Shown one piece after another: positions 16,324 through 37,083 of a DNA stretch of 40,149 bases. The DNA comes from an uncultured Muribaculaceae bacterium (GTDB lineage: Bacteria; Bacteroidota; Bacteroidia; Bacteroidales; UBA932). The position numbers were made by a program, and so were the translations under genes. Position 1 is the first letter of the stretch. Each line of letters begins with the position of its first letter. Under the pieces are notes generated by a model. The model was not told where the DNA came from, ran no database searches, and was given only the letters and a program-made list of their open reading frames with translations. Where the stretch lies: NCBI GenBank assembly GCA_964649555.1, contig CAZYQA010000001.1, forward strand, positions 1 to 40,149. Reading direction: 5' to 3'.

Positions 16324-16358
16324 ATTTTTCTGTTTTAATTATTTCTGTTTTTTTCGGG

Positions 16359-16395
16359 ACGGCAAAGCCGCCAAAGGGGTAAAGCACTTTGCCGT
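16359..16395 (-). other. GC-rich intercistronic hairpin between two pilin-like paralogs
   Basis: 9-bp perfect stem ACGGCAAAG (16359-16367) / CTTTGCCGT (16387-16395) in an otherwise AT-rich 100-nt spacer. No U-tract follows it on the transcribed (minus) strand. Confidence 0.4.
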
Positions 16396-16423
16396 TCGGC
16401 TCGTTGCTAAGTGCATTACGGCA

Positions 16424-17887
16424 CTATTCTATATCCCTAACTAAACGCACTCGGTCGTTGCTAGTCTTGCTGTTGGTGCTCGAGATGCCGTAGCTGAAGT
16501 TGACACACATATTGGTGCCCGTGTAGCTCTCCGTAGCAGACTTATAGAAGTCCGAAGCCAACATTGTGCCTCCTGCGGTTGTTATTATGAGATTATTAGC
16601 TGGCTGGTTTGTATCCCACCATGAGTATAATTTCATTAACTCATCTTTGGCAGGTAGATACCACGGACCGTTAACATCGCTGTCATTCTTCTCATAAGCA
16701 AAATTGAAGGCATAATAGTTAGTTGCAAAATCTACTTCATCCTTTCTCAGTGTAATTAGATTCTTTGTTGCGGTCTTTCCGTCTGCGTCACTGCGGATAC
16801 CGTCAACTCCAGCTTCATGTTCATTGATATCTTGAGGACCCCATTCGCCTCGTCCCTCATCCAACGATACGATTTTGCCTTTAGTGGCATCGGCCGGGTC
16901 TACCCAAAAGACAATACCTATAGCTGTTTTTGTATTGTCATATGCAGCAGAGAATGTATTATCCGAGTAGTAGTAGTCGCCAACTGCTACGGGTTTTGGG
17001 AATACCTCATTATTGTCAGGAGTCTCCCACGCATCGTCGCAAGTAACCGAAAGGGTTGTTTCGTAAAGGTTAGAGTATGCACCTTTGATGTTGGTTTTGT
17101 AGTTACGTTGGAAAGGTACGTTTGCAATGTTTTTTACTACCTCGCTGTTGAAAGTAGCTGTAATATCCATCACTGTTTGAGTTGCATCGGTCGCAATGAT
17201 GTAGCTTGTACCGATGGTTTGATCTTTCGATGCCTTGGCAATAGATGTAAAGGAGTGAGTAGCCTTTACTGATGCTGACTCTGACTGTATCTCGGTAGCT
17301 ACATTGCCGTCGAGATTTATTGAGTATGTTTTGGGGAGCTCAACTGTAAGAGAGTTGCCATCAGCCATGAAATCTTCGGTCTGTTTGTAGTTCACTTGTG
17401 CAACGCTGTGGGTAAGAGTTGGGGTAAGGTAAGGCTTCGTTGCTGCTTTGCTGTCGTAGGTGAAGCGCACCAAACCGCCAAATGCCATCTTTGTAGCCTG
17501 ACCTACAATTGATACTTTTTTTAGGTCAGCAGCAGCATATTCGTTAGTTGCTCCATCATTCGTACTTCCATAGTCAGCCCAGAACAGACACGCATAGGTT
17601 ACTCCCTCTTTCAAGATAACTGTAAACGAGCCTGTCGCCTCTTCGTAACGTTGTTGGGGCGTACCGCTAACTGCTGCATCCGCTGTTGCAACCTCATACA
17701 CCTCCATAATGTAGCGTGTAGGGGGTGTGGCTGGAGGTGTTATCGCACGAGTTTCTACACCGTCATTCACCTCGATACTGAATGTTGCTTTACTGTCAGG
17801 AGCATTCGATAGTTCCGAATCCTCTTTTTGGCAACTCGAGAATATTGCTGCGATGCCAAGTGCCATTATTAAAAGTTTTGTTTTCAT
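16424..17887 (-). CDS. Pilin-like lipoprotein with one C-terminal DUF1566-type module
   Basis: 487 aa. Has a lipobox (IFSSC), ETRA, YIMEVYEV, and CLFWADYG. The C-terminal module reads VGDYYYSDNTFSAAYDNTKTAIGIVFWVDPADATKGKIVSLDE ... PWYLPAKDELMKLY ... VRLVRDIE. Confidence 0.65.
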   Translation of the reverse strand: MKTKLLIMALGIAAIFSSCQKEDSELSNAPDSKATFSIEVNDGVETRAITPPATPPTRYIMEVYEVATADAAVSGTPQQRYEEATGSFTVILKEGVTYACLFWADYGSTNDGATNEYAAADLKKVSIVGQATKMAFGGLVRFTYDSKAATKPYLTPTLTHSVAQVNYKQTEDFMADGNSLTVELPKTYSINLDGNVATEIQSESASVKATHSFTSIAKASKDQTIGTSYIIATDATQTVMDITATFNSEVVKNIANVPFQRNYKTNIKGAYSNLYETTLSVTCDDAWETPDNNEVFPKPVAVGDYYYSDNTFSAAYDNTKTAIGIVFWVDPADATKGKIVSLDEGRGEWGPQDINEHEAGVDGIRSDADGKTATKNLITLRKDEVDFATNYYAFNFAYEKNDSDVNGPWYLPAKDELMKLYSWWDTNQPANNLIITTAGGTMLASDFYKSATESYTGTNMCVNFSYGISSTNSKTSNDRVRLVRDIE

Positions 17888-17935
17888 ACTTTTTTTTAAA
17901 ATAATTGTTACTATTTTGTTTTAAATTATTACTTA

Positions 17936-19261
17936 TTAAAACGCCCTGATACAGCGCACATTCACTATACCGCTCTTGAGGGCATTTATCTTGCTGCCAT
18001 CGGTGGAGTAGACAACTGAACTGAAGCCATAGTTGTTCTCCACAGAAGACCAGTATTGGGTATTGTTAAGCAGGGTTGCTGGACTACAATTCGTTATCGC
18101 GGTATTTATGATACTCTTCTTGCCAATAAGAGCTGTTAGTTCATTTGTCGCAGGCAGATACCAAGTACCTGTTGTGGCATTAGCGTAATCGGTGTCGGCA
18201 CTATTCTTCGCAGCACACCAAGCAAAAGCAGGGTAAGATGTAAAGTTATTATTGCCAAAAGCCTTTATTGTTGCCATATTAGTTATGCCGTTATCTTCAT
18301 TGCTGGCTCCTGTCACAACATTTTCTGTGCTCCATTTCAATTGATTTGCTTCATCCAACGATACGATTTTACCTTTAGTTGCATCGGCAGAATCTATCCA
18401 AAAGACTATACCGATTACGGTTTTACTATTATCGTATGTGGTAGAGAATGTGTTATTCGAGTAGTAATAGTCACCAACTTTTGGATTTAATACTACATAT
18501 TTCCCCTTAACATTGGTTTTGGAGTTAGCTTGGTAGGTGATACCCGTAACTTCTGTTGGCTTTACGTCTCCATCAACTTGAAAGGTTAAATCAAAGGTAG
18601 ACTTCGTTTTAGGGTTAGCCAATAACCAAAATGAACCAAATGACTCACCTGCCACTGATGCCACGGAAGTAATATTGTAACTCTGCACCACTGCCGTACC
18701 CGAAATAGTGCTATCTATAGTGTTGAATGTTGGAGATAGCGAATATTTCAGATTGACACTCTTGCCTGCCTCCATATCATTTTTATTGCATAGGTTAATC
18801 TTTGCAACGGCACGCTTGAGCGATATTTTGAGCGTGGAGCTTGCTCCGTTAATGATCGCATTGCCGAAGAATGCTTCGATAGGGAGTTTATTATTGTTGA
18901 GAGTTACTGCTTTTAGATTTTCAGTATTATATACGGTTTTGTCATTATCAGCCCACAAAAGGCAATGATACACCTTTGTGCGGTCAAGAGTTAGAGAAAA
19001 TTTGCCATCGGTACTTATCTTTTGTGTTGGAGTGTCGGAATAATCCGAAGTAGTGTAAATCTCAAGGATATAGTTATTCACAGGAACAGTTCCTCGTGTT
19101 TCTATACCCATAGGCTCCATTGTGCCATCTGCATACGAAAAGTCTGGCGTAACGGTGAGCGTTATGCTTTGTCCTCCCATTTGTGATTCGTTTTCCAACT
19201 CTGTTTTGGCACATCCTACCATCAACAGTATAGCACCAGTTATATATATTATATTTTTCAT
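17936..19261 (-). CDS. Pilin-like lipoprotein with one C-terminal DUF1566-type module
   Basis: 441 aa. Has a lipobox (MVGC), ETRG, YILEIY, and CLLWADND. The C-terminal module reads VGDYYYSNNTFSTTYDNSKTVIGIVFWIDSADATKGKIVSLDE ... YPAFAWCAAKN ... TWYLPATNELTAL ... VRCIRAF. Confidence 0.65.
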   Translation of the reverse strand: MKNIIYITGAILLMVGCAKTELENESQMGGQSITLTVTPDFSYADGTMEPMGIETRGTVPVNNYILEIYTTSDYSDTPTQKISTDGKFSLTLDRTKVYHCLLWADNDKTVYNTENLKAVTLNNNKLPIEAFFGNAIINGASSTLKISLKRAVAKINLCNKNDMEAGKSVNLKYSLSPTFNTIDSTISGTAVVQSYNITSVASVAGESFGSFWLLANPKTKSTFDLTFQVDGDVKPTEVTGITYQANSKTNVKGKYVVLNPKVGDYYYSNNTFSTTYDNSKTVIGIVFWIDSADATKGKIVSLDEANQLKWSTENVVTGASNEDNGITNMATIKAFGNNNFTSYPAFAWCAAKNSADTDYANATTGTWYLPATNELTALIGKKSIINTAITNCSPATLLNNTQYWSSVENNYGFSSVVYSTDGSKINALKSGIVNVRCIRAF

Positions 19262-19274
19262 ATTCGTTCAGCTA

Positions 19275-20630
19275 TTAAAACTCTATATTAAATTCATCAT
19301 CCCAGCTTGTGTCAATGTCTATTCCCCCCTTACCTGCCGTTAGGAAATCACCGCTAATGGTAGTCAAGTACCCCGCTTTGTAGTTTATCTTGATTCCATT
19401 AACACCGCTCACTGTATTGCCATTGGCATCTTTGAAGGTAATATTTACCACTACGCTCGATTCTTTCCCATTTACAAGTACAAAATCTTTAGCTACAACA
19501 GCTTTTTTATCATCAATTTCGGTTACACCTGCTGTATATTTATAACCTTCGCTAGAAGCTGTAAGTGTTTTATCTAAAATATTATATCCAGCAGGGAAGA
19601 ATCCAGAATACATTACATATATTTTAAGTTCTTCTAAAGGAGGATAGCCTCGCTTTACTCGTATCTCATTATATTTTTCAATGTCGTTAGCCACGATTTT
19701 ATATTTTGCCAATGGACGGTGAAGAGTGTAGTTCTCTGTTTTACCCTCTTTGCTTATATTAATTGTAGTAGCAAAGCCAAAACAATCACGAGTGTCCGTA
19801 TTTGCCCAATAGCTCTCCTTTGGCAAGATCTTTACATCTTTTAGATTGGATGTATTATAGTGATAATCCTCCGTTTCGTTCTCGGAATAGTCACCCCAGA
19901 TTCTTACATCAAACTCTCCTTGTGGCATAACAATAGAGGTTTTGTAAACTCCTGCCGTAGTTGTTGACTCTACAAATTTTTGATGGCGTAAAACCACATT
20001 ATCCGTATTCTTATGCAGTATTTCTATAATAGCTCGCAAACGTACATTTTCTCCTATACTCAACGCTTTTGTAACCACATAATCAGGCAATAATGGCTGA
20101 GGGTAGGTTAGATTAAGAGTTACCATTGTCACTTCAACTGCCCCGGACCCCTCTTTAATGTCAATAGTAACCTGCTTAACGCCATCTTTAATCTCGTGAC
20201 GAACCATTCCTGTAAGTAATTCAGGGTATTGTGTATCAAGCGTTTTTACCCATAACTTAAAGTCTGAGAACGAAATGTTTGGAATTTCTCCTCGAGTAGT
20301 TGGTATCAACCCTTCTTCTGTATTGAGAATGGCAAAAACAGTGTATTGTCCACTCTCTATAAGCAATCTGTCGAGCGCTAAATCTGTCATCTTTGGGTAA
20401 TAATTGTGCTCTGCCAACTTATCGGCTTCGTTGAAGAAGTAGATATGCACATCTTTCAACGGTTTATCTAGTACTTCATCGGTATTGAGTGCAATCGTAA
20501 CCGCAGATTTAGAGTTATTTGGAAGCAATATATTCGTCTCGTGGAGGGTCTTATCACATCCGGTTAAAGCTATACACAATGCTCCCGCAATACATAATAG
20601 GCTTCTGCATATATAATTTATCTGTATCAT
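19275..20630 (-). CDS. Mfa2/FimB-like (type V pilus anchor/accessory-like) lipoprotein
   Basis: 451 aa. Has a lipobox (LTGC) and an N-terminal pattern V.I.L......L.DVHIYFFNE....E..YY resembling Mfa2/FimB-family lipoproteins. It sits immediately after the OmpA-like gene and before the pilin-like genes. The family assignment is tentative. Confidence 0.5.
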   Translation of the reverse strand: MIQINYICRSLLCIAGALCIALTGCDKTLHETNILLPNNSKSAVTIALNTDEVLDKPLKDVHIYFFNEADKLAEHNYYPKMTDLALDRLLIESGQYTVFAILNTEEGLIPTTRGEIPNISFSDFKLWVKTLDTQYPELLTGMVRHEIKDGVKQVTIDIKEGSGAVEVTMVTLNLTYPQPLLPDYVVTKALSIGENVRLRAIIEILHKNTDNVVLRHQKFVESTTTAGVYKTSIVMPQGEFDVRIWGDYSENETEDYHYNTSNLKDVKILPKESYWANTDTRDCFGFATTINISKEGKTENYTLHRPLAKYKIVANDIEKYNEIRVKRGYPPLEELKIYVMYSGFFPAGYNILDKTLTASSEGYKYTAGVTEIDDKKAVVAKDFVLVNGKESSVVVNITFKDANGNTVSGVNGIKINYKAGYLTTISGDFLTAGKGGIDIDTSWDDEFNIEF

Positions 20631-20636
20631 TGTTAT

Positions 20637-21851
20637 CTATTTTTCTACTACATAAAGTTTAATTTCTGCTCGTCGTGCCTTTGTGTCACTCTCTGCCATG
20701 GTATCTACACCGTTGCCTTTTATGGTTATACGGCTTTCTGCTACCTTTTGGCGTATTAAGTAATCTTTTAATAATTTTGCTCGTTGAGTTGAAGTATTAT
20801 TGTTTGCTTCTGTTGTTCCTCTTTGATCTGACCATGCCTCAATAGCAATATCTGCCTGAGAGTGTTTTTTTATAGCATTCAATAGTTTTTGTATTGTTTC
20901 AGAACTATCCTCTCGTACAAAAGGGTCATTAAAGGCATAATATACTGTTGCCTTATACACTTCATTGCAAACGGGTGCTTTTTCAACTACCTTAAGCTCT
21001 TCTTGCTTTGCTTGAGATGTGTTTGTAGGTTCTACAACCTCTTTTTTGACCTCATTTTTGGTTTCATCCTTCACTGTCTCTATAGTTTGTATATTAGCAC
21101 TATAGGTGGGTTGTGATACCGTCTGTTTTGTCTTGCGTTTACTAATAGCAAATGTTACCTTTACTCCGCTATTCCAAGTATAGTTGCTCTTATGCTCCAC
21201 CTGTGGCAGAGCATCAATACCTTTGCCTGTAAGCAAGGTAATACCCGAATAGAGGCGGATATTTATTTTAGGTGAAATTTGATAACCTACACCTAGATCT
21301 CCACCTGCGCCAAAATGGAATGATGTGCCATTTTTGACCTCTTTGTCGGTTGAGATAGTTATAATATTGGCACTTGAAAGCACACTATATATAGCAGGTG
21401 AGATGAGAAACGACCATCTACTTGTTGGCTTAAACATCTTTACAAAATCAACATTCAGCCTTGCCCCAAGGCCGTAAAGGTTTACAGAGGAATGTAGATC
21501 ATTATACTGCCAACTATTTACTCCTGCTACAGGTGCAAAATAGCGGTTGCCGTCTGCCCCTAGAAACAGGTGTTGACAGCAGTCGTAAGCTCCCAATCCC
21601 ATATACCGATAGCTTAATTCTGCTTCAGCAGAGATGTATTGGTTGATATGATACCCACCCAATAGACCTATTCCAAAGCCTATACGGGTTTTATCCATTC
21701 CAAATGATTTAAAGGTGGAGTTTCCGAACGAAACACCTGCATCTGCACCTATGTACCAATGTGGCTCAGCAATACTTATTTTTTGCTTTTGTGCCTGTAT
21801 TGTGCCTACATTTACAAAGAGCAAAAAGGTAAGAAATAATAATCTTTTCAT
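20637..21851 (-). CDS. OmpA family protein: N-terminal small beta-barrel fused by a low-complexity linker to an OmpA_C peptidoglycan-binding domain
   Basis: 404 aa. Has a signal peptide, a Gly/aromatic-rich barrel strands region (WYIGADAGVSFG..., GIGLLGGYHIN), and a K/E/T/V-rich linker. The C-terminal OmpA-like domain reads IEAWSDQRGT...N...S.QRA..L.DYL....V...RI...G. Confidence 0.8.
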   Translation of the reverse strand: MKRLLFLTFLLFVNVGTIQAQKQKISIAEPHWYIGADAGVSFGNSTFKSFGMDKTRIGFGIGLLGGYHINQYISAEAELSYRYMGLGAYDCCQHLFLGADGNRYFAPVAGVNSWQYNDLHSSVNLYGLGARLNVDFVKMFKPTSRWSFLISPAIYSVLSSANIITISTDKEVKNGTSFHFGAGGDLGVGYQISPKINIRLYSGITLLTGKGIDALPQVEHKSNYTWNSGVKVTFAISKRKTKQTVSQPTYSANIQTIETVKDETKNEVKKEVVEPTNTSQAKQEELKVVEKAPVCNEVYKATVYYAFNDPFVREDSSETIQKLLNAIKKHSQADIAIEAWSDQRGTTEANNNTSTQRAKLLKDYLIRQKVAESRITIKGNGVDTMAESDTKARRAEIKLYVVEK

Positions 21852-22069: not shown

Positions 22070-22845
22070 AGCGCTAGAATGGAGTGTTTTACGATATATC
22101 CGTGAAGTTTTTATCCCTGAATATGCTAAGAACTTCAACAAAGGATTATCGACAGAGGATATAAAGTTTTACGGTAAAATCTATCTCGACCGTGAACGCT
22201 CCGATAATGAACAGAATCTACACTGTTATTTAATTATCAGCCGTAAAGACTAAGCCAATAAAAAGAAACTATCTCCGCTTACTAACCATAAGAACACAAA
22301 GAAAGGCACGGTTACAGGCGGTTTTGACCGTGTGAAGCTATTTCAACAAGCGGAGCAGGGCTTCTAAGCTATTCCGTTATAATCGCCAACAAACAGAATC
22401 GTTTGACTACTGCAACACGATGAAAAATGGCACTATATCCGAGCAACTCCATTTGCAAGAGCAGGTTATCAACTCTAGTGAAATGAAAAATAGTAGCCAA
22501 GAAAACTTGTTAGCTGATATACCAGAAAACAAGGTTACAGATAAACCAGTTTACAACCTTGAAAATCTTCAAACTACCAAGCAATCATACAGCCAACCTG
22601 AAAATGAAACCTCGTTAGGTTCTTTAATCTCTTTCACTTCATCGGGAGCGGATTATCTGCCTAATGAGAGTCTAACGGATGAAGAGCTTCGCAAACTCAA
22701 AAACGCAAACGTAAGAAAGGCAGGAAAATGTAATGTATTCCTTCTTTTTATCTGTAAACAAAGGTCTATTTCGGGAATAAAACGGCAACACCAAGCCCTG
22801 CGGGTTTTGGGGAATTTCTTCCTTTCTCGTGCCTCAAAAGAGTAA
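22070..22845 (+). pseudogene. Decayed Bacteroides-type mobilization/relaxase-family gene (5'-truncated, with an in-frame stop and a frameshift)
   Basis: The frame opening at about 22070 reads ...REVFIPEYAKNFNKGLSTEDIKFYGKIYLDRERSDNEQNLHCYLIISRKD then TAA (22251-22253). It continues ANKKKLSPLTNHKNTKKGTVTGGFDRVKLFQQAEQGF. It then needs a +1 shift near 22365 to reach KLFRYNRQQTESFDYCNTMKNG..., which is the 22420..22845 ORF. The (H)..IISRKD and GGFDR motifs resemble Bacteroides Mob proteins. The N-terminal part is missing. Confidence 0.55.
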
Positions 22846-23061
22846 ATTTCCCAAAAGTATTGCCTTATTTATGCCCTTCATAGTTTGGGTGTTTACCAGA
22901 TAAAAAAGGAAAAATATAAGCAGTGGGTTAGAGCCATATAGGACAACAAACGCCATTGCCGCATAGTGCATACTCAATTTTCAAACCGCCCTGTTTTTAT
23001 CTCTTTCTTTGCTGTAAATCATTGCAATGAAAAGAGTTTATAACGCTAAAACAGTAAGAAT

Positions 23062-23334
23062 ATGGAAATTGTAGCCATCGAAAAAAGAACCTTTGAACAG
23101 CTGATGCAGAGGTTCGATGATTTTGTCAAACAGGTAAATGTACTTTGTGGAGATAATCGCAAAGCTGATAACTGGTTAGACAACAAACAGGTTTGTGAAT
23201 TGCTAAAAATATTGCTCCGCACCCTGCAAACATACCGAGATACGGGAAAGTTGCCATTTTCGCAAATTGGGCGTAAATGCTATTACAAGGCTACCGACAT
23301 CGAACAGTTTATCAATCGGGCATCGACCAAATAA
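23062..23334 (+). CDS. Helix-turn-helix (excisionase/MerR-like HTH_17) DNA-binding protein
   Basis: 90 aa. Reads WLDNKQVCELLKI..RTLQTYRDTGKLPFSQIG.K.YYK..DIEQFI. It is a clear homolog of the 30216..30500 product. Confidence 0.8.
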   Translation: MEIVAIEKRTFEQLMQRFDDFVKQVNVLCGDNRKADNWLDNKQVCELLKILLRTLQTYRDTGKLPFSQIGRKCYYKATDIEQFINRASTK

Positions 23335-23342
23335 TCACAGTT

Positions 23343-23621
23343 ATGGAAAGAGAATATTTTGATTTAAGTGTTTTGGTTGGGAATTGGGAGAGCGTTAATC
23401 TGAACCCAACTGTGATGATATACAACAACGTTAATAGCTGCCTATTAAGCATTATCTATATGAACGAAACCACCAGACAAGCAAGTCCATCAACCTATGA
23501 GATTCAGGAGGACGAGCAGGGCTATTTTATATCGCTGAACGGCAAACGCACCGCTGTTAGTTATGATGTAAGATTAGACACATTAACCATCGCTACGATG
23601 GGCGATTATATACGAAACTAA
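23343..23621 (+). CDS. Small hypothetical protein of the conjugative/mobilizable-element backbone
   Basis: 92-aa ORF starting at ATG 23343 (MEREYFDL...), packed between the two HTH genes. I recognise no motif. The 23277 start in the ORF track overlaps the previous gene. Confidence 0.45.
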   Translation: MEREYFDLSVLVGNWESVNLNPTVMIYNNVNSCLLSIIYMNETTRQASPSTYEIQEDEQGYFISLNGKRTAVSYDVRLDTLTIATMGDYIRN

Positions 23622-23633
23622 AACTACCAAATA

Positions 23634-23903
23634 ATGGATATATTAGACCATAAATCACCGCAAATTTACTCGTTCTTTGAGAGTCTGAACGAGCTTTCAA
23701 ACGCCATTCAAATAGCACTTAAAAGCCGTACTCCACACCTGAACGGTGAAAAGTATCTCACCAACCGAGAGGTTTGCCAACTACTCCGTATCTCTCCCCG
23801 TACCCTCCAAAACTGGAGGGACACGGGCAAAATTAAGTTTATTCGACTGAATGGTAAGATTCTGTATAGAGAATTAAGTATTTTATTGTCATTAAAACCA
23901 TAA
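23634..23903 (+). CDS. Helix-turn-helix (excisionase-like HTH_17) protein with a divergent, apparently replaced C-terminus
   Basis: 89 aa. Reads LNGEKYLTNREVCQLLRISPRTLQNWRDTGKIKFIRLNGKILYRE, homologous to the 29926..30219 product up to YRE. It then ends in the unrelated LSILLSLKP. Confidence 0.75.
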   Translation: MDILDHKSPQIYSFFESLNELSNAIQIALKSRTPHLNGEKYLTNREVCQLLRISPRTLQNWRDTGKIKFIRLNGKILYRELSILLSLKP

Positions 23904-23923
23904 ACTTTTACATCTAAACATAG

Positions 23924-24949
23924 TTACTTTTCTTCTTGGTCAAGAATATTAGGGTAATTAATATTACCATGCTTATCTTTGATACACGAAACAATTCTTT
24001 CAAGCTCTTGTCCTACTGGTTTTGTTCCTAAATCTGTATTATTTTTATAGATTCCTATTTTCTGTTTAACTTGTTCTTGTTCTAAATTGTTTACAATACA
24101 TCCGATTTTACTATCAAGTATTGCATATTTATGTGCAATGTCAAAAATTTCGTCAGTTCTTATGTCTGTAATGATATACCTGTGAACAACCCGATTCCTC
24201 TGTTTGTACAATTCTTCCAATTCATCATATATTTCTTGAGAAATAATACCTTTATCTCGTGTTTGTTTATATATCTCTCTTTCCATGATTGGCTTATCAG
24301 ATTCAGATTGAAACAAAAGATTTGTATCTATCTCATCGTTTGTATTTTCGAGTTGAGATGTCAATATTATTGAGAGCCTTAGAGAAGCATCAATACTATT
24401 TGCAGATAACACTACATATTCTATAAAAGAATTATTTTCAATTGCTCGATTTTTCAAATCGATTGTAGTTGCTATTGATGCCATGAATAAACCGAATCGC
24501 CTTAATGCAATAACTTTATCTCGGAATTCAGGTTTGATAAATTTGATTGTAGAAAGGGTTTCTCTTACCTTGCGTAACTCTTCATTGTATTTGTCTCTCA
24601 AATTTTCTTTTTTGTCTGTTATCGTATAAGTGGCAAATAAAAAATGGTCATCTACAGCACAAGAAAACATATAAACTTCAATACTATCTAAAATATTGAT
24701 ATTTTCCGAAAATGATAAAGTTTTAGCATCTGAAGATTGCGTAGGTTCATTTCTTACTTTTATTAATTTTGATATATGATCATTTACTGGTTTGCAACTT
24801 ATTTGAAACGCACCTAACATATCATCATATAAACCAAATGATTGAGGGTGATTATCATTTACATTATTATAATAAGTTGGATTTTTGTATTGCCAATCAA
24901 TTGGTATATACATTTGAAATTTACCACTAGGGTCTGTATATAGTTTCAT
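23924..24949 (-). CDS. Hypothetical two-domain protein; the C-terminal helical half carries an RNxxxH (HEPN-like) motif
   Basis: 341 aa. The N-terminal 140 aa or so is an alpha/beta-looking domain (KFQMYIPIDWQY...). The C-terminal half is helical and contains ELEELYKQ-RNRVVH-RY (R251..H256, nt 24182-24199). The gene is visibly more AT-rich than its neighbours and lies 34 nt downstream of an integrase. Confidence 0.55.
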   Translation of the reverse strand: MKLYTDPSGKFQMYIPIDWQYKNPTYYNNVNDNHPQSFGLYDDMLGAFQISCKPVNDHISKLIKVRNEPTQSSDAKTLSFSENINILDSIEVYMFSCAVDDHFLFATYTITDKKENLRDKYNEELRKVRETLSTIKFIKPEFRDKVIALRRFGLFMASIATTIDLKNRAIENNSFIEYVVLSANSIDASLRLSIILTSQLENTNDEIDTNLLFQSESDKPIMEREIYKQTRDKGIISQEIYDELEELYKQRNRVVHRYIITDIRTDEIFDIAHKYAILDSKIGCIVNNLEQEQVKQKIGIYKNNTDLGTKPVGQELERIVSCIKDKHGNINYPNILDQEEK

Positions 24950-24983
24950 ATAATTATTTTCTTACAAAGGTACTATTTTTACA

Positions 24984-26267
24984 TCACTTATAGTACTGAT
25001 TTCTAATAAAATCCTCTGGCACATCATCTTTTGGGAGTTCGTAGCGGTTTTCAATACGACTGGATAAGATTTTCATATCTTCATTGACCTTTTGGTTGGT
25101 AATTTTGGCGTAAATTTGAGTAGTCTGCACGGAACGATGTCCCATCATTTTGCAGAGTGTCTCAATCGGAACTCCTTGTGATATACACACTTGGGTTGCA
25201 TAGGTGTGCCGCCCCATATGATAGCAAAGTCGGCTCGAAATATCGCACTTTTTAGCAATGATTTTTAGGTTCTCATCAATGGTTTTCAAAGTTTTAAGTT
25301 TGAAAATTTTTTCATCCGTTCGCTCGTGTTTATACTTCTCCATTATCTGAATAGCAACACTAAGCGATCGGATTCTACATTCGCTCTTCGTTTTCTGGCG
25401 TTCAATCTTAATCCACATTACCCCGTTATCGTCCGTTGAGATATGCTTTTCGGAGAGGTTACACATATCTGCATACGCCATACCTGTAAACGCAGCAAAG
25501 AGAAACATATCACGGCATCGTTCAAGATGCTTTTCGACTATGGGTGTAGTGAGTAGCTTTTGAAACTCTTCCATCGTTAAGTGCCGACGCTGTTTTAACG
25601 GTTTTTCGGCAACATAATTGGCAAATGGGTCACGTTTGATAATATCCTGACTAATCGCCCGACGAACTATTTTTCGCAAGGGGATAATATGATTCAAAAC
25701 CGTATTGCCATTCATTCGCTTATCAACCCTCAAATGGAAATCGTAGGCATCAATAAACGGATGATTGAGTTGCATAAGCGGTATATCTTCTTTCTGGTAA
25801 CGTGACTTGATAAAGTTTTCGAGCACTCTGTATGAGTGCAGATATTGTTCGTAGGTTACTTGGGTACGATTGACACCTACACGCAGTTTAAATTCATCGT
25901 TGTGTTCTCGAAATAGCTCTAACAATCCAACAGCTTTACGATTCACGCCCATAAGAGCGTTCTTTATCCGTTCAGCAGTAACATAGCCATCTTCTAACAC
26001 TAAATGGTTATAATGTTGCCCTATCTCTGTTTCTAACTTATCTAACGTACGATTCAACGAGATTGATTCTTTGCTCTTGCCAATAGCACGTCCCGACTTA
26101 CTATCCCACCTATCGGGTTCGATATATTGTTGGGTGCTAAATCGGGCTGATTGAGCGTCAACGCTTATTCTGCCTGTAATAACACATAATCCCTGTTTGG
26201 TAATCTTTGATTTGTCGATATAGAATAGCACGGCAAAGGTGCTTCGGATATTTATTTTTGTTTTCAT
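24984..26267 (-). CDS. Tyrosine site-specific integrase (Bacteroides CTn/NBU type; second of a tandem pair)
   Basis: 427 aa. Has an N-terminal arm-binding-like start (STFAVLFYIDKSK...), a SAM-like core-binding region, and catalytic-domain motifs (FAAFTGMAYADM, HMGRHTYAT, LGH.SVQTTQIYAK). Confidence 0.9.
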   Translation of the reverse strand: MKTKINIRSTFAVLFYIDKSKITKQGLCVITGRISVDAQSARFSTQQYIEPDRWDSKSGRAIGKSKESISLNRTLDKLETEIGQHYNHLVLEDGYVTAERIKNALMGVNRKAVGLLELFREHNDEFKLRVGVNRTQVTYEQYLHSYRVLENFIKSRYQKEDIPLMQLNHPFIDAYDFHLRVDKRMNGNTVLNHIIPLRKIVRRAISQDIIKRDPFANYVAEKPLKQRRHLTMEEFQKLLTTPIVEKHLERCRDMFLFAAFTGMAYADMCNLSEKHISTDDNGVMWIKIERQKTKSECRIRSLSVAIQIMEKYKHERTDEKIFKLKTLKTIDENLKIIAKKCDISSRLCYHMGRHTYATQVCISQGVPIETLCKMMGHRSVQTTQIYAKITNQKVNEDMKILSSRIENRYELPKDDVPEDFIRNQYYK

Positions 26268-26280
26268 TGTATGATAATAG

Positions 26281-26476
26281 TTATAATACTACTTGAAACT
26301 TATCCTCGATACGAGATTCTACCCTCTGCATATCTTCGGCAATCTTGTGTTCGGTGATTTTTGCATAAATTTGAGTAGAACGCAAATCACGATGTCCCAA
26401 CATTCGTCTAACACTCTCAATAGGCACTCCTTGCGAGAGGCAAATCTCGGTTGCGTAGGTGTGCCGTAAGCAATGA
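26281..26476 (-). pseudogene. C-terminal fragment of a tyrosine integrase (first gene of the outer element's tandem pair)
   Basis: Family homology covers only HCLRHTYATEICLSQGVPIESVRRMLGHRDLRSTQIYAKITEHKIAEDM.... It ends 13 nt before the next integrase start. The upstream residues MLMPALPCII of the 26281..26505 ORF are not integrase-like. Confidence 0.8.
26470..26476. repeat. Left copy of the 7-bp direct repeat GCAATGA at the integrase break point
   Basis: Identical 7-mer at 39877-39883. Both copies encode the in-frame His-Cys (cat tgc) of the integrase H.xR box on the minus strand. Confidence 0.6.
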
Positions 26477-26612
26477 ATAATACACGGCAAAGCAGGCATA
26501 AGCAAGATGAAGAAAGCTAGCAGGTAATATGTTTGAAATGAGTTAGTTTGCGGTTATTTGCAGTTTTAGAAAAATGAGGAATAAAGCGAAATTATGCGAT
26601 ATTTCCGTTACC

Positions 26613-26624: not shown

Positions 26625-26725
26625 TATTAGTTACCAACCTGAAACAGGTAACTCATAGCAGATAAAAGAATTGCAAACCAAATACTATTTCGCTGATTCA
26701 CACTATTTTGCATGTCAATGAACGC

Positions 26726-26761
26726 TTGTAAACCCGATAACTTTGCTGTCGAAATATCGAC
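26726..26761 (+). promoter_or_regulatory. Long imperfect hairpin/palindrome just upstream of the first inner-element integrase
   Basis: GATAAC(TT)TGCTGTCG-AAATAT-CGACAGCAGTTATC gives 14 paired positions with a 2-nt bulge. It ends 28 nt before ATG 26790. Confidence 0.4.
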
Positions 26762-26789
26762 AGCAGTTATCACAAAAATTATAAGCGTT

Positions 26790-28019
26790 ATGAAAAACGA
26801 AAAATTCAAGGTATTACTCTACCTCAAAAAGAGTAGCCCCGATAAGTCGGGCAAAGCCCCAATTATGGGGCGTATTACCGTTGGGCGTTCAATGGCTCAA
26901 TTCAATTGCAAAATCTCTTGTGCACCCACACTCTGGAATCCCCGAGAGAGCCGATTAAATGGCAAATCAAAAGTGGCGGTAGCCACTAATGCCAAGTTGG
27001 ATAAGTTACTGCTATCAATTAACGAGGCTTACAACTCACTCTTGGAACGTAAGCAACAATTCTCGGCAACCGATGTAAAGGAACAGTTTCAGGGAAGTGT
27101 AGAGACTCAAATGACTCTGCTCAGACGATTGGTGTTATACACTGATGACTTAAAATCTCGTGTAGGTGTTGATGTTGCCAAAGGAACCATTCCGAATTAT
27201 CACTACACTCATAAATCTCTTGTCGAATTCATCAAACTAAGGTTCAATGTTTCGGATATGGCATTCGGGCAACTCAACGAACAGTTTATTCGGGATTATC
27301 AAGATTTTTGCTTGATGGATAAAAGTTTGGCTATGGACACTGTACGCCACTACTTGGCTATTTTGAAGAAGATTTGTAAGATGGCATTCAAAGAAGGTGC
27401 ATCCGAGAAGTGCCATTTTGCACATTACAAACTACCTAAACAAAAAGAGAGTACCCCTAAAGCCCTCTCTCGTGAGGACTTTGAAAAGATACGAGACCTT
27501 GATATCCCAAAGCAGAGAACTTCGTATGTTATAACAAGAGACCTTTTTCTTTTTGCCTGTTATACGGGTACTTCGTATGCCGACACGGTGTCTATTACCG
27601 AAGATAACCTTTCCAGAGACGATAATGGTGAATTATGGCTAAAATACCGCCGAAAGAAAAATGAGATGTTGGCACGGGTAAAACTACTACCCGAAGCATT
27701 AGACCTGATAGAGAAGTATAAGAGTTCGGATCGTGATACACTTTTTCCTGTACAACATTATGCTACTCTTAGAGCCAATATGAAAGGTCTTCGGGTAATG
27801 TCGGGAATGAAAGAAGATTTGGTCTACCATGCCGGAAGGCACTCATTTTCGAGTCTTATCACATTAGAGCAGGGAGTACCCATTGAGACTATCAGTCGCA
27901 TGCTTGGTCATAGTAATATTAAGACTACCCAAGTGTACGCCCGTGTGACCCCGAAGAAACTATTTGAGGATATGGATAAGTTTATCGAAGCAACACAAGA
28001 TTTAGTATTAACCCTATAA
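26790..28019 (+). CDS. Tyrosine site-specific integrase (inner element, first of tandem pair)
   Basis: 409 aa counted from ATG 26790 (MKNEKFKVLLYLKKSS...). Motifs: FACYTGTSYAD, HAGRHSFSS, LGHSNIKTTQVYARV. The extension to 26712 in the ORF track is not family-like. Confidence 0.9.
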   Translation: MKNEKFKVLLYLKKSSPDKSGKAPIMGRITVGRSMAQFNCKISCAPTLWNPRESRLNGKSKVAVATNAKLDKLLLSINEAYNSLLERKQQFSATDVKEQFQGSVETQMTLLRRLVLYTDDLKSRVGVDVAKGTIPNYHYTHKSLVEFIKLRFNVSDMAFGQLNEQFIRDYQDFCLMDKSLAMDTVRHYLAILKKICKMAFKEGASEKCHFAHYKLPKQKESTPKALSREDFEKIRDLDIPKQRTSYVITRDLFLFACYTGTSYADTVSITEDNLSRDDNGELWLKYRRKKNEMLARVKLLPEALDLIEKYKSSDRDTLFPVQHYATLRANMKGLRVMSGMKEDLVYHAGRHSFSSLITLEQGVPIETISRMLGHSNIKTTQVYARVTPKKLFEDMDKFIEATQDLVLTL

Positions 28020-28030
28020 TATTAAAAGCG

Positions 28031-29233
28031 ATGCGTAGCACATTTTCTATATTATTCTATATCAATAGAAACAAAGTAAAAGCAGACGGCACAACTGCCG
28101 TTATGTGTAGAATCTCCATAGATGGCAAAATATCGGTTCTCTCAACGGGCGTAAACTGCAATCCCGAACATTGGAAACTAGAGAGTAAAAACAACAAAGA
28201 GTTACTAAAATTACGAACCACCATTGAGCAGACATACGATAAAATACTCAAAGATACAGGTGTTGTCAGTGCAGAACTGCTGAAAAATACCATTGTAGGG
28301 GTAAATGCAGTACCTACGACTTTGTTACAAGCAGGAGAGGTTGAGCGGGAGCGGTTAAGACTTCGTTCAATTGAGATAAAATCAACATCATCACATAGAC
28401 AAAGTAAGACAACCCAACTAAATCTGAGCGATTATATTCAATCTCGTGGATTGATAGATATACCATTTGCGGATATTACAGAGGAGTTCGGAGAGTCTTT
28501 TAAGGTTTTTCTAAAACGTGAGCGAGATTACAGTGCTTCACATATTAACCATTGTCTTTGCTGGTTAAATCGGCTTATTTACATAGCAGTAGATCAAGAG
28601 ATAATTCGCTACAATCCATTGGAGGAGGTAAAATACGAGAAGAAGAAAGCTCCACAGATACGCCATATTACACGCAATCAACTAAAACAGTTGATGCAGA
28701 CCCCGATGCAAGACAAGATGATGGAACTTGCCAGACGGATGTTTATCTTTTCATCGTTCTGTGGTTTGGCTTATGTGGATATATTAAGGCTCTATCCGCA
28801 CCATATCGGCAAAGCATCTGATGGTAGACTCTATATCCGTCAGAAGCGAGGCAAGACTAAGGTAGAGGCCTTTGTTCCACTGCATCCCATTGCCGAGCGA
28901 ATACTTATGATGTACAACACCACCGATGAAACAAACCCAGTATTTCCACTTCCAAATAGAGATTTGCTTTGGCGAGATATTAACGCCATCGGAATAGCCT
29001 TTGGATTTAAGCAGAACCTTTCGCATCATCAAAGTCGGCACACGTTCGGAACTCTCTTACTTTCAGAGGGTATTTCGATTGAAAGTATTGCCAAGATGAT
29101 GGGGCATACAAATATTTCGAGCACTCAAGTTTATGCAAAAGTTACCGATGATAAAATTTCAGAGGATATGGATAAACTTATCCAAAGACGCAAAACAATG
29201 AAAAATGATGTAAATAACACGACACAATTATGA
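28031..29233 (+). CDS. Tyrosine site-specific integrase (inner element, second of tandem pair)
   Basis: 400 aa. Reads STFSILFYINRNK..., FSSFCGLAYVD, HQSRHTFGT, MGHTNISSTQVYAKV. Starts 11 nt after the previous integrase. Confidence 0.9.
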   Translation: MRSTFSILFYINRNKVKADGTTAVMCRISIDGKISVLSTGVNCNPEHWKLESKNNKELLKLRTTIEQTYDKILKDTGVVSAELLKNTIVGVNAVPTTLLQAGEVERERLRLRSIEIKSTSSHRQSKTTQLNLSDYIQSRGLIDIPFADITEEFGESFKVFLKRERDYSASHINHCLCWLNRLIYIAVDQEIIRYNPLEEVKYEKKKAPQIRHITRNQLKQLMQTPMQDKMMELARRMFIFSSFCGLAYVDILRLYPHHIGKASDGRLYIRQKRGKTKVEAFVPLHPIAERILMMYNTTDETNPVFPLPNRDLLWRDINAIGIAFGFKQNLSHHQSRHTFGTLLLSEGISIESIAKMMGHTNISSTQVYAKVTDDKISEDMDKLIQRRKTMKNDVNNTTQL

Positions 29234-29592
29234 AAAGAAATGTAATTACAATCAGCGATAACGATAAAATAACCGTTCCTGATAATATAAAAATGAATAT
29301 CACTGAAATTTCCCATCTTTTTGGACTATACTACCAACAAACTAAAAAGGCCATCCGAGAGATTGAAAAATCAAATATAGCACAAGGTGATTTTTCTACT
29401 GGCGGAGAAGTCGAAAACTCTAAGATTTACCCTGATTACTACGGATTGGATATGGTTATTGGGGTAGCTTTTAGAGTAAACACCTATGAGGCAGATGTTT
29501 TTAGAAAATGGATATTAAAGCGAATAACTATCCACCAAAAACAATCACCGCATATATTTATCCAACTACCATCAACTCAAATTTTCAACTAA
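29230..29592 (+). CDS. RhuM-like small DNA-binding protein (N-terminal RhuM-type region only)
   Basis: 120 aa. Its ATG overlaps the integrase stop (ATGA). ITEISHLFGLYYQQTKKAIREIEKSN and YYGLDMVIGVAFRVNTYEADVFRKWI resemble the conserved N-terminal region of RhuM family proteins. Confidence 0.5.
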   Translation: MKRNVITISDNDKITVPDNIKMNITEISHLFGLYYQQTKKAIREIEKSNIAQGDFSTGGEVENSKIYPDYYGLDMVIGVAFRVNTYEADVFRKWILKRITIHQKQSPHIFIQLPSTQIFN

Positions 29593-29835
29593 TGAAATAT
29601 ATTTTTAAATAATGCCCCAATCGGGTGCACTCATTTTCGTATGCAGGGCAAAGATTGTTTCGGTAGAGAGAACATTCAAGTTCAAGCCCTTGTAGGGTTA
29701 CGACTGAAATCTCCACACCTTCGCTTTAGCTTCGGGTTGTATTTAAGTCGTAAAACTTGCCTGTACACTCTCCCTACACAAGAGAAGCCCCTGCAACGAA
29801 AACGACCGACCCGACAATGACGCATAGTTCCAATA

Positions 29836-29875
29836 ACAGAAAAAGCACATCTTAAGAAAGATATGCTTTTTCTGT
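29836..29875. terminator. Hairpin between convergent RhuM-like and HTH genes (likely bidirectional terminator)
   Basis: Perfect 12-bp stem ACAGAAAAAGCA (29836-29847) / TGCTTTTTCTGT (29864-29875), with further pairing possible inside the loop. It lies about 50 nt downstream of the 29926 stop on the minus strand. Confidence 0.5.
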
Positions 29876-29925
29876 TTAATGCGTCTGCAACTTCAACTCC
29901 CTTACCTCTAAATCTGCATAGATTA

Positions 29926-30219
29926 TCATTTACGTGCCTTAATATAGTGTTTTGATAACATCTCTTGTATATCACTCTCTGCATACAAACACTTGCCTCT
30001 TAAAGCAATATAAGCTATTTTTCCTTCTGTGCGCCAATCCTGTAGAGTACGCCTGCTTACTTTCAATCTTGCCGACACTTCTCGGTCGGTTAGATAAGTT
30101 TCACCATTTAGGGATACCTTACGGTTGTTGGTTAACTTTTCAATGCTTGCCAAAATTCTATCAAGCGTTTTTACAAACCCAAGCACTTGCGGATTCTCTT
30201 TTGTTATAATTGTACTCAT
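29926..30219 (-). CDS. Helix-turn-helix (excisionase-like HTH_17) protein
   Basis: 97 aa. Reads LNGETYLTDREVSARLKVSRRTLQDWRTEGKIAYIALRGKCLYAESDIQEML. Overlaps the upstream HTH gene by 4 nt (ATGA). Confidence 0.8.
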   Translation of the reverse strand: MSTIITKENPQVLGFVKTLDRILASIEKLTNNRKVSLNGETYLTDREVSARLKVSRRTLQDWRTEGKIAYIALRGKCLYAESDIQEMLSKHYIKARK

Positions 30220-31443: not shown

Positions 31444-31767
31444 ATGGCTAAAAAGAAATATACACAACAAGAGGAGCAGTTGGCACGTTTCGCAAAAGCG
31501 TTAGGTCATCCTGCACGTATTGTTATATTGAAATTCTTAGCTGCGCAAGATAGTTGCTTTTTTGGCGACATACACGAGGTGCTGCCTATTGCTAAGGCTA
31601 CTGTGTCACAACACTTGACGGAATTGAAAAATGCAGGATTGATTCAAGGTGAGATTCAACCACCAAAGGTAAGATATTGCATTAATCTTGAGAATTGGAT
31701 GTTAGCAAAATCTCTATTTTCTGAGTTTTTGAAAGAAGATAAGACACATAAAGGTTGTTGTAAGTAA
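31444..31767 (+). CDS. arsR: ArsR/SmtB family metalloregulatory repressor
   Basis: 107 aa. Winged-HTH pattern LARFAKALGHPARIVILKFL....SCFFGDI.EVLPIAKATVSQHL.ELKNAGLI. Cysteines at positions 38, 79, 105 and 106 (C-terminal GCCK). Confidence 0.85.
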   Translation: MAKKKYTQQEEQLARFAKALGHPARIVILKFLAAQDSCFFGDIHEVLPIAKATVSQHLTELKNAGLIQGEIQPPKVRYCINLENWMLAKSLFSEFLKEDKTHKGCCK

Positions 31768-31786
31768 TAACTATTTTTTGTAAATT

Positions 31787-31807
31787 ATGTTCGTAGTTTT
31801 GCGAACT
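31787..31807 (+). promoter_or_regulatory. Operator-like palindrome, site 2, overlapping a TAnnTTTG -7 box
   Basis: ATGTTCGTAGTTTTGCGAACT with embedded TAGTTTTG (31794-31801). Lies between arsR and the Trx-like gene, about 60 nt upstream of ATG 31868. Confidence 0.55.
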
Positions 31808-31867
31808 ACAAACAACAAAAAGGAGTGATTTATATTGAATTATAATAATTTAAATAAGAACAAAACA

Positions 31868-32101
31868 ATGGAAATTAAAGTATTGGGAACTGGCTGTGCA
31901 AGTTGCAAGGCTCTCCATGAAACAGTTAAGCAAGCAGTCGCAGAATTGGGTATTGAGGCTACAGTAATCAAAGAAGAAGATTTGATGCAGATTATGAACT
32001 ACAACGTTATGTCAATGCCGGGATTAGTAATTGACGAAAAAGTAGTTTCGGCAGGTAAGAAACTATCTGTTGCAGATGTAAAATCATTATTAACCAAATA
32101 A
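31868..32101 (+). CDS. Small thioredoxin-fold protein (TM0996/MTH895 glutaredoxin-like, redox-active disulfide protein type)
   Basis: 77 aa from ATG 31868. Reads MEIKVLGTGCASCKAL... with a CxxC near the N-terminus and a MSMPGLVIDEKVV.(S)G segment. This family is commonly linked to ArsR and DUF318 permease genes. Confidence 0.75.
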   Translation: MEIKVLGTGCASCKALHETVKQAVAELGIEATVIKEEDLMQIMNYNVMSMPGLVIDEKVVSAGKKLSVADVKSLLTK

Positions 32102-32111
32102 ACTATCTACA

Positions 32112-32546
32112 ATGAAAAAGATATTATTTGCTTTGATAGCTATCCTAACTCTATCTTCTTGTGGCAATAGCCAAAATGCAAATGCTCAATCTTCTGCAAA
32201 ATCTACACAGAAAGATATTATAGAGGTTCTATATTTTCATGGCAAACAACGATGCATCACTTGTAATGCCATCGAAAAACTAACAAAAGAGGTTGTAGAA
32301 AAAGATTTTGCCGAGCAAGTCAAAGATGGTAAAATAGTATTTAAGGTTATAGACATTTCAACAAAAGAGGGCGAAAAGGTAGCAGATAAATACGAGGTTA
32401 CTTGGTCGTCGCTGTTTATTAATAAATGGAAGGACGGAAAAGAGTCTAAAAACAATATGACTGATTTTGGTTTCTCTTACGCAAAAAACTCACCAGACGT
32501 TTTCAAAGCAGGAGTAAAGAAAAAGATTGATGAACTTCTTAAATAA
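32112..32546 (+). CDS. Thioredoxin-fold lipoprotein with CxxC motif (CITC)
   Basis: 144 aa. Has a lipobox (LSSC), then EVLYFHGKQRCITCNAIE.... Confidence 0.6.
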   Translation: MKKILFALIAILTLSSCGNSQNANAQSSAKSTQKDIIEVLYFHGKQRCITCNAIEKLTKEVVEKDFAEQVKDGKIVFKVIDISTKEGEKVADKYEVTWSSLFINKWKDGKESKNNMTDFGFSYAKNSPDVFKAGVKKKIDELLK

Positions 32547-32554
32547 TTTGGTTC

Positions 32555-33265
32555 ATGGAGTTTTTACAATCTCTTTTAGAAAATAGCAATATGCCGATTG
32601 TAACGGCTTTTCTGCTTGGAATTTTAACCGCAATAAGTCCGTGTCCATTAGCTACTAATATCACGGCAATAGGATATATAAGCAAAGAGTGCGGAGCCGC
32701 ACGGGCAATTTTTTGGAGGGGCATACTCTATACGGTTGGTCGTGTTATCACCTATACAGTCTTAGGATTTATCATTATCCCGATTTTACGAGAGGGTGCG
32801 AGTGTGTTTGCTTTGCAGAAAGTAATCTCTAAATATGGTGAGATGCTGATAGCTCCTGCTCTGATTTTAATTGGACTATTTATGCTTTTTGGAAGCAAAC
32901 TAAACTTACCTAAATTTGGATTTAGCGGTAATGGAAGCGATAAGCTAAAACAAAAAGGAAGTTGGGGAGCATTGATGCTTGGTGTATTGTTTTCATTAGC
33001 ATTCTGTCCTACAAGCGGCGTATTCTACTTTGGAATGTTGATGCCGATGTCGGCAGCAGAAACGGGTGGTTATCTATTGCCTGTTGTTTTTGCTATTGCT
33101 ACGGGATTGCCCGTTATTATAGTTGCTTGGATATTGGCATATAGCGTAGCCGGACTGGGTAAATTCTATAACCGCATACAAGTATTTCAAAAATGGTTCT
33201 CAAAGATAGTTGCTATTCTATTTATTGCAGTGGGTATTTATTACGCAATCATGTTTTATCTATAA
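32555..33265 (+). CDS. CcdA/DsbD-family transmembrane thiol:disulfide electron-transfer protein
   Basis: 236 aa with about 6 TM helices. One Cys sits in each of two helices next to Pro (AISPCPLA and LAFCPTSG), as in CcdA-type transporters. Confidence 0.7.
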   Translation: MEFLQSLLENSNMPIVTAFLLGILTAISPCPLATNITAIGYISKECGAARAIFWRGILYTVGRVITYTVLGFIIIPILREGASVFALQKVISKYGEMLIAPALILIGLFMLFGSKLNLPKFGFSGNGSDKLKQKGSWGALMLGVLFSLAFCPTSGVFYFGMLMPMSAAETGGYLLPVVFAIATGLPVIIVAWILAYSVAGLGKFYNRIQVFQKWFSKIVAILFIAVGIYYAIMFYL

Positions 33266-33277
33266 AAAATATCATAA

Positions 33278-33733: not shown

Positions 33734-33745
33734 TCAATTATAAGT

Positions 33746-34789: not shown

Positions 34790-34817
34790 GTCAAATCTTA
34801 AAACAATAATAAATAGT

Positions 34818-35567: not shown

Positions 35568-35574
35568 TCTATAA

Positions 35575-35600: not shown

Positions 35601-35612
35601 AATTTAAAAACA

Positions 35613-35633: not shown

Positions 35634-35649
35634 AAATAATAATAAAAAC

Positions 35650-36153: not shown

Positions 36154-36159
36154 AATAAA

Positions 36160-37071: not shown

Positions 37072-37083
37072 AAATATAAAATC

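Follow-up and report, generated by a model that had tools for sequence, protein, structure and literature searches.

A Mog1/PsbP-like domain fused to a HepT-like HEPN domain as a candidate single-gene abortive-infection effector in a defense-cassette slot of gut Bacteroidales integrative elements

The DNA analyzed here is a stretch of 40,149 nucleotides from an uncultured Muribaculaceae bacterium (GenBank assembly GCA_964649555.1, contig CAZYQA010000001.1, positions 1 to 40,149), referred to below as the window. It carries a gene for a 341-aa protein that is probably a self-contained abortive-infection-type effector, one that joins a cytoplasmic binding domain of Mog1/PsbP-like type to a HepT-like HEPN ribonuclease (RNase) domain. 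A new single-gene abortive-infection-type defense is the most likely role of this gene. The RNase activity, toxicity, autoinhibition, trigger, and anti-phage function of the protein are properties that we infer from its sequence and by analogy with characterized systems. The gene and its parts are as follows.

23924–24949, minus strand: complete gene for the 341-aa PsbP-like/HEPN fusion, an open reading frame (ORF) with an ATG start.
24536–24949, minus strand: N-terminal domain (residues 1–138), with a Mog1p/PsbP/DcrB/Tsi3-like alpha/beta fold and without a signal peptide.
23924–24535, minus strand: C-terminal domain (residues 139–341), a HepT-like HEPN helical domain followed by a conserved DKHG tail (D325, K326).
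24176–24199, minus strand: putative RX4HXY catalytic signature, codons R251-N-R-V-V-H256-R-Y258, assigned from the sequence and from the invariance of R251, N252, H256, and R257 in the family.
24377–24391, minus strand: codons D187-A-S-L-R191 (IDAxLR), the second invariant polar pair, in the helix of residues 175–202.

The protein is a member of the HEPN superfamily, nearest to HepT/DUF86. An earlier note on this DNA, made from the letters alone, had reported the ORF and an RNxxxH motif and had taken the latter for a HEPN signature. Both the ORF and the motif were confirmed, with R251 and H256 in the context ELEELYKQ-R251-N-R-V-V-H256-R-Y258. The same note had found no match that it could name for the product, which has to be corrected. 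The Pfam model HepT-like (PF01934, DUF86) aligned to residues 218–274 (E = 8.7e-5, 22.7 bits), and the NCBIfam equivalog model HepT_toxin (NF047751) aligned to residues 211–274 (E = 1.8e-5, 24.6 bits, under its cutoff of 60 bits). Both alignments run across RX4HXY, a HepT-specific toxin motif (PMC7641770). Taken alone, the motif is weak evidence, as 2.1% of shuffled versions of the protein with the same composition also contain RNxxxH; it becomes significant because it is invariant across the family. In a 40-sequence alignment of homologs down to 30% identity, R251, N252, H256, and R257 were invariant, so the conservation of R and H that the earlier reading called for is present. D187, L190, and R191 (IDAxLR), Q199, Q214, and E223 were likewise invariant in the C-terminal domain, as were P16, Y21, N23, F38, F48, Q49, and S51 in the N-terminal domain; D187, L190, and R191 are also invariant in stand-alone forms of the C-terminal domain. 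RNxxxH was kept in 80 of 81 genome homologs, and the motif ended in HxY in 72 of the 81 and in HxF in 8, the position of Y258 being Phe in ~10% of homologs. The most conserved segment was the motif helix (residues 238–262), with a mean pairwise identity of 0.64, against 0.49, 0.40, and 0.30 for the HEPN core, the N-terminal domain, and the tail, respectively. Ten of the 40 family members matched HepT-like in their own right (E < 0.01), and P0241, a member with tandem domains, cleared the cutoff of this model at 33.6 bits. The motif Arg fell on HepT-like profile position 87–88 in five independent Pfam alignments.

Structure prediction pointed to the same assignment. A full-length AlphaFold2 model built on the 40-sequence alignment (pLDDT, the predicted value of the local distance difference test, 90.4; predicted template modeling score, pTM, 0.86) contained a beta-rich alpha/beta domain at residues 1–135 and an all-helical region at residues 140–327. 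The C-terminal domain modeled alone reached a pLDDT of 92.2. In a Foldseek search against the PDB, this model matched almost exclusively HEPN proteins, with probabilities up to 1.00. The matches included the HepT toxins 8xdj, 7ae6, 7bxo, 8xeh, 6m6u/w, and 5yep, AF_0298 with the highest template modeling (TM) score (0.64 by target), and YutE, HI0074 (1jog), SsR10, the sacsin HEPN domain, and Csm6. A HEPN fold is present around the motif in the model, and together with the two HepT profile models over the motif and the invariance of R251, N252, and H256, it upholds the original HEPN call. These fold matches also bear on an alternative in which the HEPN domain is a catalytically inert scaffold, acting as a ligand- or nucleotide-binding adaptor like nucleotidyltransferase substrate-binding proteins. 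HI0074 has the nucleotidyltransferase substrate-binding-domain fold, one family member matched the Pfam model NTase_sub_bind, and the Foldseek statistics of the C-terminal domain are weak. An inert scaffold is nevertheless highly improbable: neither the full R-N-x3-H motif nor a set of further polar residues varies, conservation peaks in the motif helix, and no partner nucleotidyltransferase was found in the neighborhoods described below.

The N-terminal domain was tentatively called Mog1/PsbP/DcrB-like in the earlier note, and the structural matches agree with that call. Foldseek against the PDB returned PsbP (E 1.5e-4 to 4e-3, probability 1.00) and the type VI secretion system immunity protein Tsi3 (TM 0.56–0.57 by target), with further matches to DcrB, LpqN, TiME, and BT_1490. 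Pfam gave no match within residues 1–140 even at E ≤ 10, the DcrB/DUF1795 and PsbP families included. BT_1490 (3hlz), a surface lipoprotein of a vitamin-B12 uptake locus, aligned over 288 columns and was rejected as a two-domain homolog, as only the fold of the N-terminal domain matches (TM ~0.3, root-mean-square deviation ~12 Å). The Mog1/PsbP/DUF1795/Tsi3 fold is mainly a protein- or peptide-binding module. The N-terminal domain is presumed to be a sensor or gating module. In the literature searched on HEPN together with PsbP, Mog1, or DcrB, this architecture was not found described.

The gene is a single-gene unit, and the partner that defines type VII HepT/MntA systems is missing. We clustered the 490 ORFs lying within 4 kb of the gene in 81 loci and found no conserved neighbor, the largest neighbor cluster being present in 6 of the 81 loci. 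The strict GSX10DXD motif of MntA was found neither in the 266 small neighbors from these loci nor in window positions 17–31 kb, and NTP_transf_2 was not one of the Pfam families that recur in 146 adjacent genes. A hidden Markov model search of all ORFs beside stand-alone C-terminal domain genes returned no split N-terminal domain gene or other partner. Because there is no MNT, membership in the type VII HepT/MntA systems fails, and the earlier remark that no MNT or antitoxin-like partner adjoins the gene extends to the 81 loci. One apparent natural split, P0266 plus P0074 on L185 (5380–5400), was rejected. It stems from a +1 frameshift within a homopolymer stretch (A9), the contig has 3.33x coverage, and the split is probably an assembly artifact or a pseudogene. 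This frameshifted relative adjoins DNA methylase genes.

The missing partner bears directly on a second reading, in which the gene is a fused toxin-antitoxin or addiction module that mainly stabilizes the integrative element, through post-segregational killing or element competition, rather than serving phage defense. Here, the N-terminal domain would serve as a labile antitoxin in cis, or else Y258 would be AMPylated by an MNT encoded elsewhere. Such a module would account for the exact RX4HXY motif, including the Tyr that MntA modifies, and for the location of the gene beside an integrase on an integrative element; fused MNT-HEPN modules do occur on mobile elements. We consider it rather unlikely in view of the lack of MNT, GSX10DXD, and recurrent NTP_transf_2 in the surveys above, the replacement of the Tyr by Phe in part of the family, and the PsbP-like fold of an N-terminal domain that is not a nucleotidyltransferase. 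Many homologs also lie off recognizable mobile elements, and the other cargos of the slot are defense systems, not toxin-antitoxin modules. The boundary between toxin-antitoxin and abortive-infection systems is blurred, and this reading overlaps with the effector that we favor.

The family is built around the C-terminal domain. A homology search returned 120 proteins, mostly full-length relatives of ~330 aa, down to 30% identity, a few of which are annotated by JGI as 'YutE (UPF0331/DUF86 family)'. An exhaustive profile search gave 354 representative proteins, with the C-terminal domain as the constant module. This domain occurs alone in relatives of ~190 aa that keep all motifs, and it is joined to a different N-terminal domain of ~110 aa (W-x-W...YD...SIGY pattern) in P0206, P0236, and P0265. 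It is followed by a C-terminal transmembrane segment and a Cys-rich tail in P0175 and is duplicated in tandem (double HEPN) in P0241. In P0238, it lies within a 742-aa protein that has an extra RNDYLH region upstream, and its own motif is degenerate. The two-domain form was detected in 117 of 185,579 species-representative genomes, with a patchy distribution across many Bacteroidota, Ignavibacteria, Balneolales, and Gamma-, Beta-, and Deltaproteobacteria. Among IMG/VR contigs, three of ~41–43 kb (L101–L103) that are predicted to be viral or prophage carry two full-length members and one stand-alone C-terminal domain, and tblastn against isolated phage genomes (INPHARED) and plasmid records (PLSDB) gave no family match.

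This distribution speaks to a third reading, a nontoxic HEPN RNase for housekeeping or regulatory RNA processing with the N-terminal domain as a substrate or partner adaptor. There are HEPN enzymes that process RNA, and several homologs are found among metabolic genes. Presence in so few species genomes with a patchy cross-phylum spread, the foreign GC content and synonymous divergence of the gene, its place in a variable defense hotspot, and its unconserved genomic context make a housekeeping function improbable.

The gene occupies the cargo slot of an integrative element, and the following features describe the slot and its surroundings.

23062–23903, plus strand: HTH_17, DUF3876, and HTH_17 backbone genes (Pfam) in convergent orientation to the gene, marking the border of the cargo slot.
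24060–24960, minus strand: segment 92–100% identical to L011, the approximate extent of the cassette, from sliding identity and per-gene synonymous divergence (dS).
24965–24972, minus strand: TACCTTTG, in the 34-bp gap before the ATG, which fits the –7 promoter element of Bacteroidetes, TAnnTTTG.
24984–26267, minus strand: tyrosine integrase of the element backbone (Pfam Arm-DNA-bind_5, Phage_int_SAM_5, and Phage_integrase).
26281–26505, minus strand: second tandem integrase, an ORF reduced to a 74-aa C-terminal remnant.

The slot was surveyed in 80 metagenomic loci (L104–L183) that encode relatives of the adjacent integrase. The integrase-to-HTH_17 distance ranged from 0.3 to 3.4 kb, the cargos were very diverse, and the gene itself was present in only one locus (L108). 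Nine of ten alternative cargos tested matched PADLOC models, namely, Hachiman HamB (E = 0), PARIS AriAB (E = 4e-154), DRT RT_UG5-nitrilase (E = 5e-234), PDC-S25 (E = 2e-146), PDC-S45 (E = 3e-110, in 5 loci), a PtuA-like ATPase, AbiU, TIR-TM, and a caspase. The integrase-to-HTH_17 slot in gut-Bacteroidales integrative elements is a hotspot of interchangeable defense cassettes. The anti-phage reading draws strong contextual support from the known defense systems that occupy this slot in related elements. Distant relatives of the gene adjoin PDC-S39, a Type IIG restriction-modification enzyme, a capP-like gene, AbiV, and PDC-S32, and other relatives adjoin OLD/GajA/AriA/mad3-type ATPases, HipA, AbiJ, LA2681-HEPN, nSTAND3, and a reverse transcriptase. 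Among the surveyed slots, the caspase cargo is accompanied by TIR-like genes, and L120 contains an apparent restriction-modification pair. Further cargos are proteins of 809 aa (HD-like, L141), 581 aa (L116), and 484 aa (L129, L111).

Composition and divergence both mark the gene as foreign to its surroundings. Its GC content is 0.291 and its GC content at third codon positions (GC3) is 0.199, each the lowest among the 37 ORFs of the window (z = –2.9 and –2.6, respectively), and the window as a whole has a GC content of 0.373. In the closest relatives (94% aa identity), one or two integrases and the gene are followed by the convergent HTH_17-DUF3876-HTH_17 block and then DUF5712, an arrangement found in L011–L015. 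The window is colinear with L011 over 22731–26466, and homology ends at 26466. From the ATG to about codon 295, identity to L011 is 92–100%, whereas the surrounding backbone is 65–88% identical. The dS against L011 is 0.27 for the gene, in contrast to 0.83 and 1.10 for the HTH_17 genes, 1.74 for DUF3876, and 1.95 for the integrase (82% aa identity). With its dS discordant with that of the backbone, the gene is a foreign, functional cassette that moved into, or was swapped between, backbones already diverged from each other. The AT-richness and horizontal acquisition put forward in the earlier note are thus borne out by GC and GC3, by the discordant dS, and by the variability of the slot. Its description of tandem integrases upstream stands in part, as one gene is intact and the other is truncated to the 74-aa remnant; L011 has two intact tandem integrases at the same place. 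The ratio of nonsynonymous to synonymous divergence (dN/dS) of the gene against its closest relative, L011, is 0.11, and because of this value, the gene is functional and under purifying selection.

The intact integrase is on the same strand as the gene and ends 34 bp upstream of its ATG. The gap holds TACCTTTG, which fits TAnnTTTG, the Bacteroidetes –7 promoter consensus. TAyCTTTG is kept upstream in four relatives despite diverged intergenic DNA, and the TAnnTTTG pattern is common, with 74 matches in the window. These observations are only suggestive of a promoter belonging to the gene itself. A sigma-70 promoter and terminator scan was uninformative: it found no terminator, and 11 promoter sites stood against 9.2 expected. 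In comparison with L011, the host element appears decayed. Its DUF5712 gene, of the mobilization region, is reduced to an internal fragment (22091–22432), ~400 bp including a 134-aa gene are missing, and the outer integrase is cut to 74 aa, while the HEPN gene is intact. The HTH_17 ORF (23062–23334) and the DUF3876 ORF (23277–23621) overlap by 58 bp from their annotated starts; DUF3876 has 114 aa here versus 92 aa in L011, and its true start is probably further downstream.

Several results weigh against an anti-phage effector with a HEPN RNase domain. The Pfam HepT-like score of 22.7 bits is 0.8 below the gathering cutoff of 23.5. Queried with the protein, A1, A2, and P0241, the PDB yielded no meaningful match in sequence or profile searches (a beta-amylase match at E ~1.5 was judged to be due to chance), and the Foldseek E-values of the isolated C-terminal domain are weak (≥0.18). 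The PADLOC check proposed in the earlier note was negative, with none of the 5027 models of PADLOC-DB v2.0.0 matching the protein at E ≤ 10. Many homologs sit among ordinary housekeeping genes. A search for other effectors fused to the N-terminal domain returned only fragments of the family, a weak negative as the word-index prefilter passed 9 candidates; because no such fusion turned up, the sensor role of this domain is without independent support. The gene also lies in a decayed element and could be a relic, although its dN/dS argues otherwise.

For the effector that we favor, we propose a mechanism in four steps. The protein would be made from its own promoter and kept inactive, a resting state suggested by the stable carriage of the gene without an antitoxin. 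Two HEPN domains would then pair, and their R251/N252/H256 motifs would form a composite active site, a step proposed on the basis of HEPN family knowledge and of the natural tandem-HEPN relative P0241. HEPN RNases function in dimeric form, and their Rx4-6H site is composite (PMC13043305, PMC11087260). The N-terminal domain would gate this pairing or the active-site geometry, and binding of a trigger, most likely a phage-made protein, would lift the block. A phage-made protein is favored over a small molecule because the fold typically binds proteins or peptides. Finally, the active RNase would cut cellular and phage RNA, and the resulting growth arrest would abort the infection. A precedent for gating in cis is FhepTA, a fused MNT-HEPN toxin-antitoxin of Shewanella mobile elements, whose N-terminal domain blocks HEPN dimerization (PMC13000451). 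Partner-less HEPN proteins on integrated elements that sense phage tail proteins and execute abortive infection also have precedents. Tha, from S. aureus prophages, was shown experimentally to be an abortive-infection-like RNase triggered by phage tail proteins (PMC11087260). HepS, from the Gifsy-1 prophage, is a constitutively made solo HEPN whose oligomeric geometry autoinhibits it and which becomes active on binding a phage (tail) protein (PMC13043305).

We advance more tentatively, at somewhat less than even chances, a wider proposal in which the family is a single-gene anti-phage system, widely scattered and so far unrecognized. Its cytoplasmic Mog1/PsbP-fold domain would be a pattern-recognition sensor that binds a phage protein directly and, by allostery, releases a HepT-type RNase, and the slot would be a hotspot of cassette exchange in which more immune genes of gut commensals might be found. 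That single-protein HEPN systems of the Tha and HepS type sense phage structural proteins directly is a recent finding, and no such system was found described for gut Bacteroidales in the literature searched. If the proposal is true, a new sensor fold would be added to the HEPN effector repertoire. The family is without a dedicated Pfam or PADLOC model and is experimentally tractable, and its stand-alone and tandem relatives are natural controls for dissecting autoinhibition. The slot with its swapped cassettes, in integrative elements of human-gut Bacteroidales, is useful for defense-gene discovery, with a view to phage therapy and microbiome engineering. To a specialist, the overall result is not conceptually surprising; the new part is the previously undescribed PsbP-like N-terminal module.

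Elsewhere in the window, a second unit of the same layout stands back-to-back with the first at 26712–30219. It comprises tandem integrases on the plus strand (26712–28019 and 28031–29233), a 120-aa RhuM-like fragment (29230–29592), and a convergent HTH_17 gene on the minus strand (29926–30219), which suggests that two integrative elements accreted head-to-head. A similar RhuM-like ORF of 126 aa fills the slot in L176. An arsenic-resistance-like operon (31444–38252) follows, with genes for an ArsR-type helix-turn-helix protein, a lipoprotein, DsbD_2, a low-molecular-weight phosphatase (ArsC-like), an SBF/ACR3-type transporter, a thioredoxin-like protein, and two ArsP permeases; an AraC regulator (38759–39598) lies after it. 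On the other side of the element, a minus-strand run of surface-protein genes (14338–21851) encodes three paralogous lipoproteins with Lcl_C domains (14338–19261), a DUF6562 protein (19275–20630), and an OmpA-like beta-barrel protein (20637–21851). The GC content rises to 0.44 around 16–17.5 kb of the window.

Among known systems, HepT of the type VII HepT/MntA pair (PF01934; Shewanella SO_3166, PDB 5yep/7bxo) is the closest by both sequence profile and fold, sharing the RX4HXY motif at the equivalent profile position and the helical HEPN core. The family described here differs from it in having no MntA partner and a Tyr that is not strictly conserved. The window protein is also ~2.5 times longer, with the PsbP-like N-terminal domain and the C-terminal DKHG tail, and it scores below the Pfam and NCBIfam cutoffs for HepT. 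FhepTA is similar as a single polypeptide on mobile elements that combines an N-terminal domain with a C-terminal HepT-type HEPN domain. Its N-terminal domain is a nucleotidyltransferase, whereas the one here is Mog1/PsbP-like, and because of this difference in fold, self-AMPylation would not be expected. The Mog1p/PsbP-like proteins themselves (PsbP, DcrB/DUF1795, Tsi3, LpqN, and BT_1490) have a fold in common with residues 1–135, but they are secreted, periplasmic, lumenal, or lipoproteins, whereas the domain here is without a signal peptide and is fused to a predicted nuclease.

Tha resembles the protein in being a single polypeptide of ~300 aa whose N-terminal half is unassigned and whose HEPN domain, at the C-terminal end, carries RNxxxH; it is encoded next to int/xis. 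In phage 80alpha (L184), Tha-1 (1662–2567) lies directly beside int/xis in the same type of integrase-adjacent slot. No homology between the two proteins was detectable, as hhalign of the family profile against Tha-1 gave a probability of 0.14 and tblastn against phage genomes gave no match. The N-terminal region of Tha is predicted at low confidence, whereas a PsbP-like domain is predicted confidently here, and the host phyla differ. HepS is likewise a partner-less HEPN on a mobile element, to which the protein is likened by analogy. No cas genes, CRISPR, or cyclic-oligonucleotide synthase were found in the window or in related loci. The proposed logic is that of Csm6/Csx1 in type III CRISPR systems, in which an N-terminal ligand sensor allosterically controls a dimeric C-terminal HEPN RNase, with the difference that the putative sensor here is PsbP-like in place of a CARF domain.

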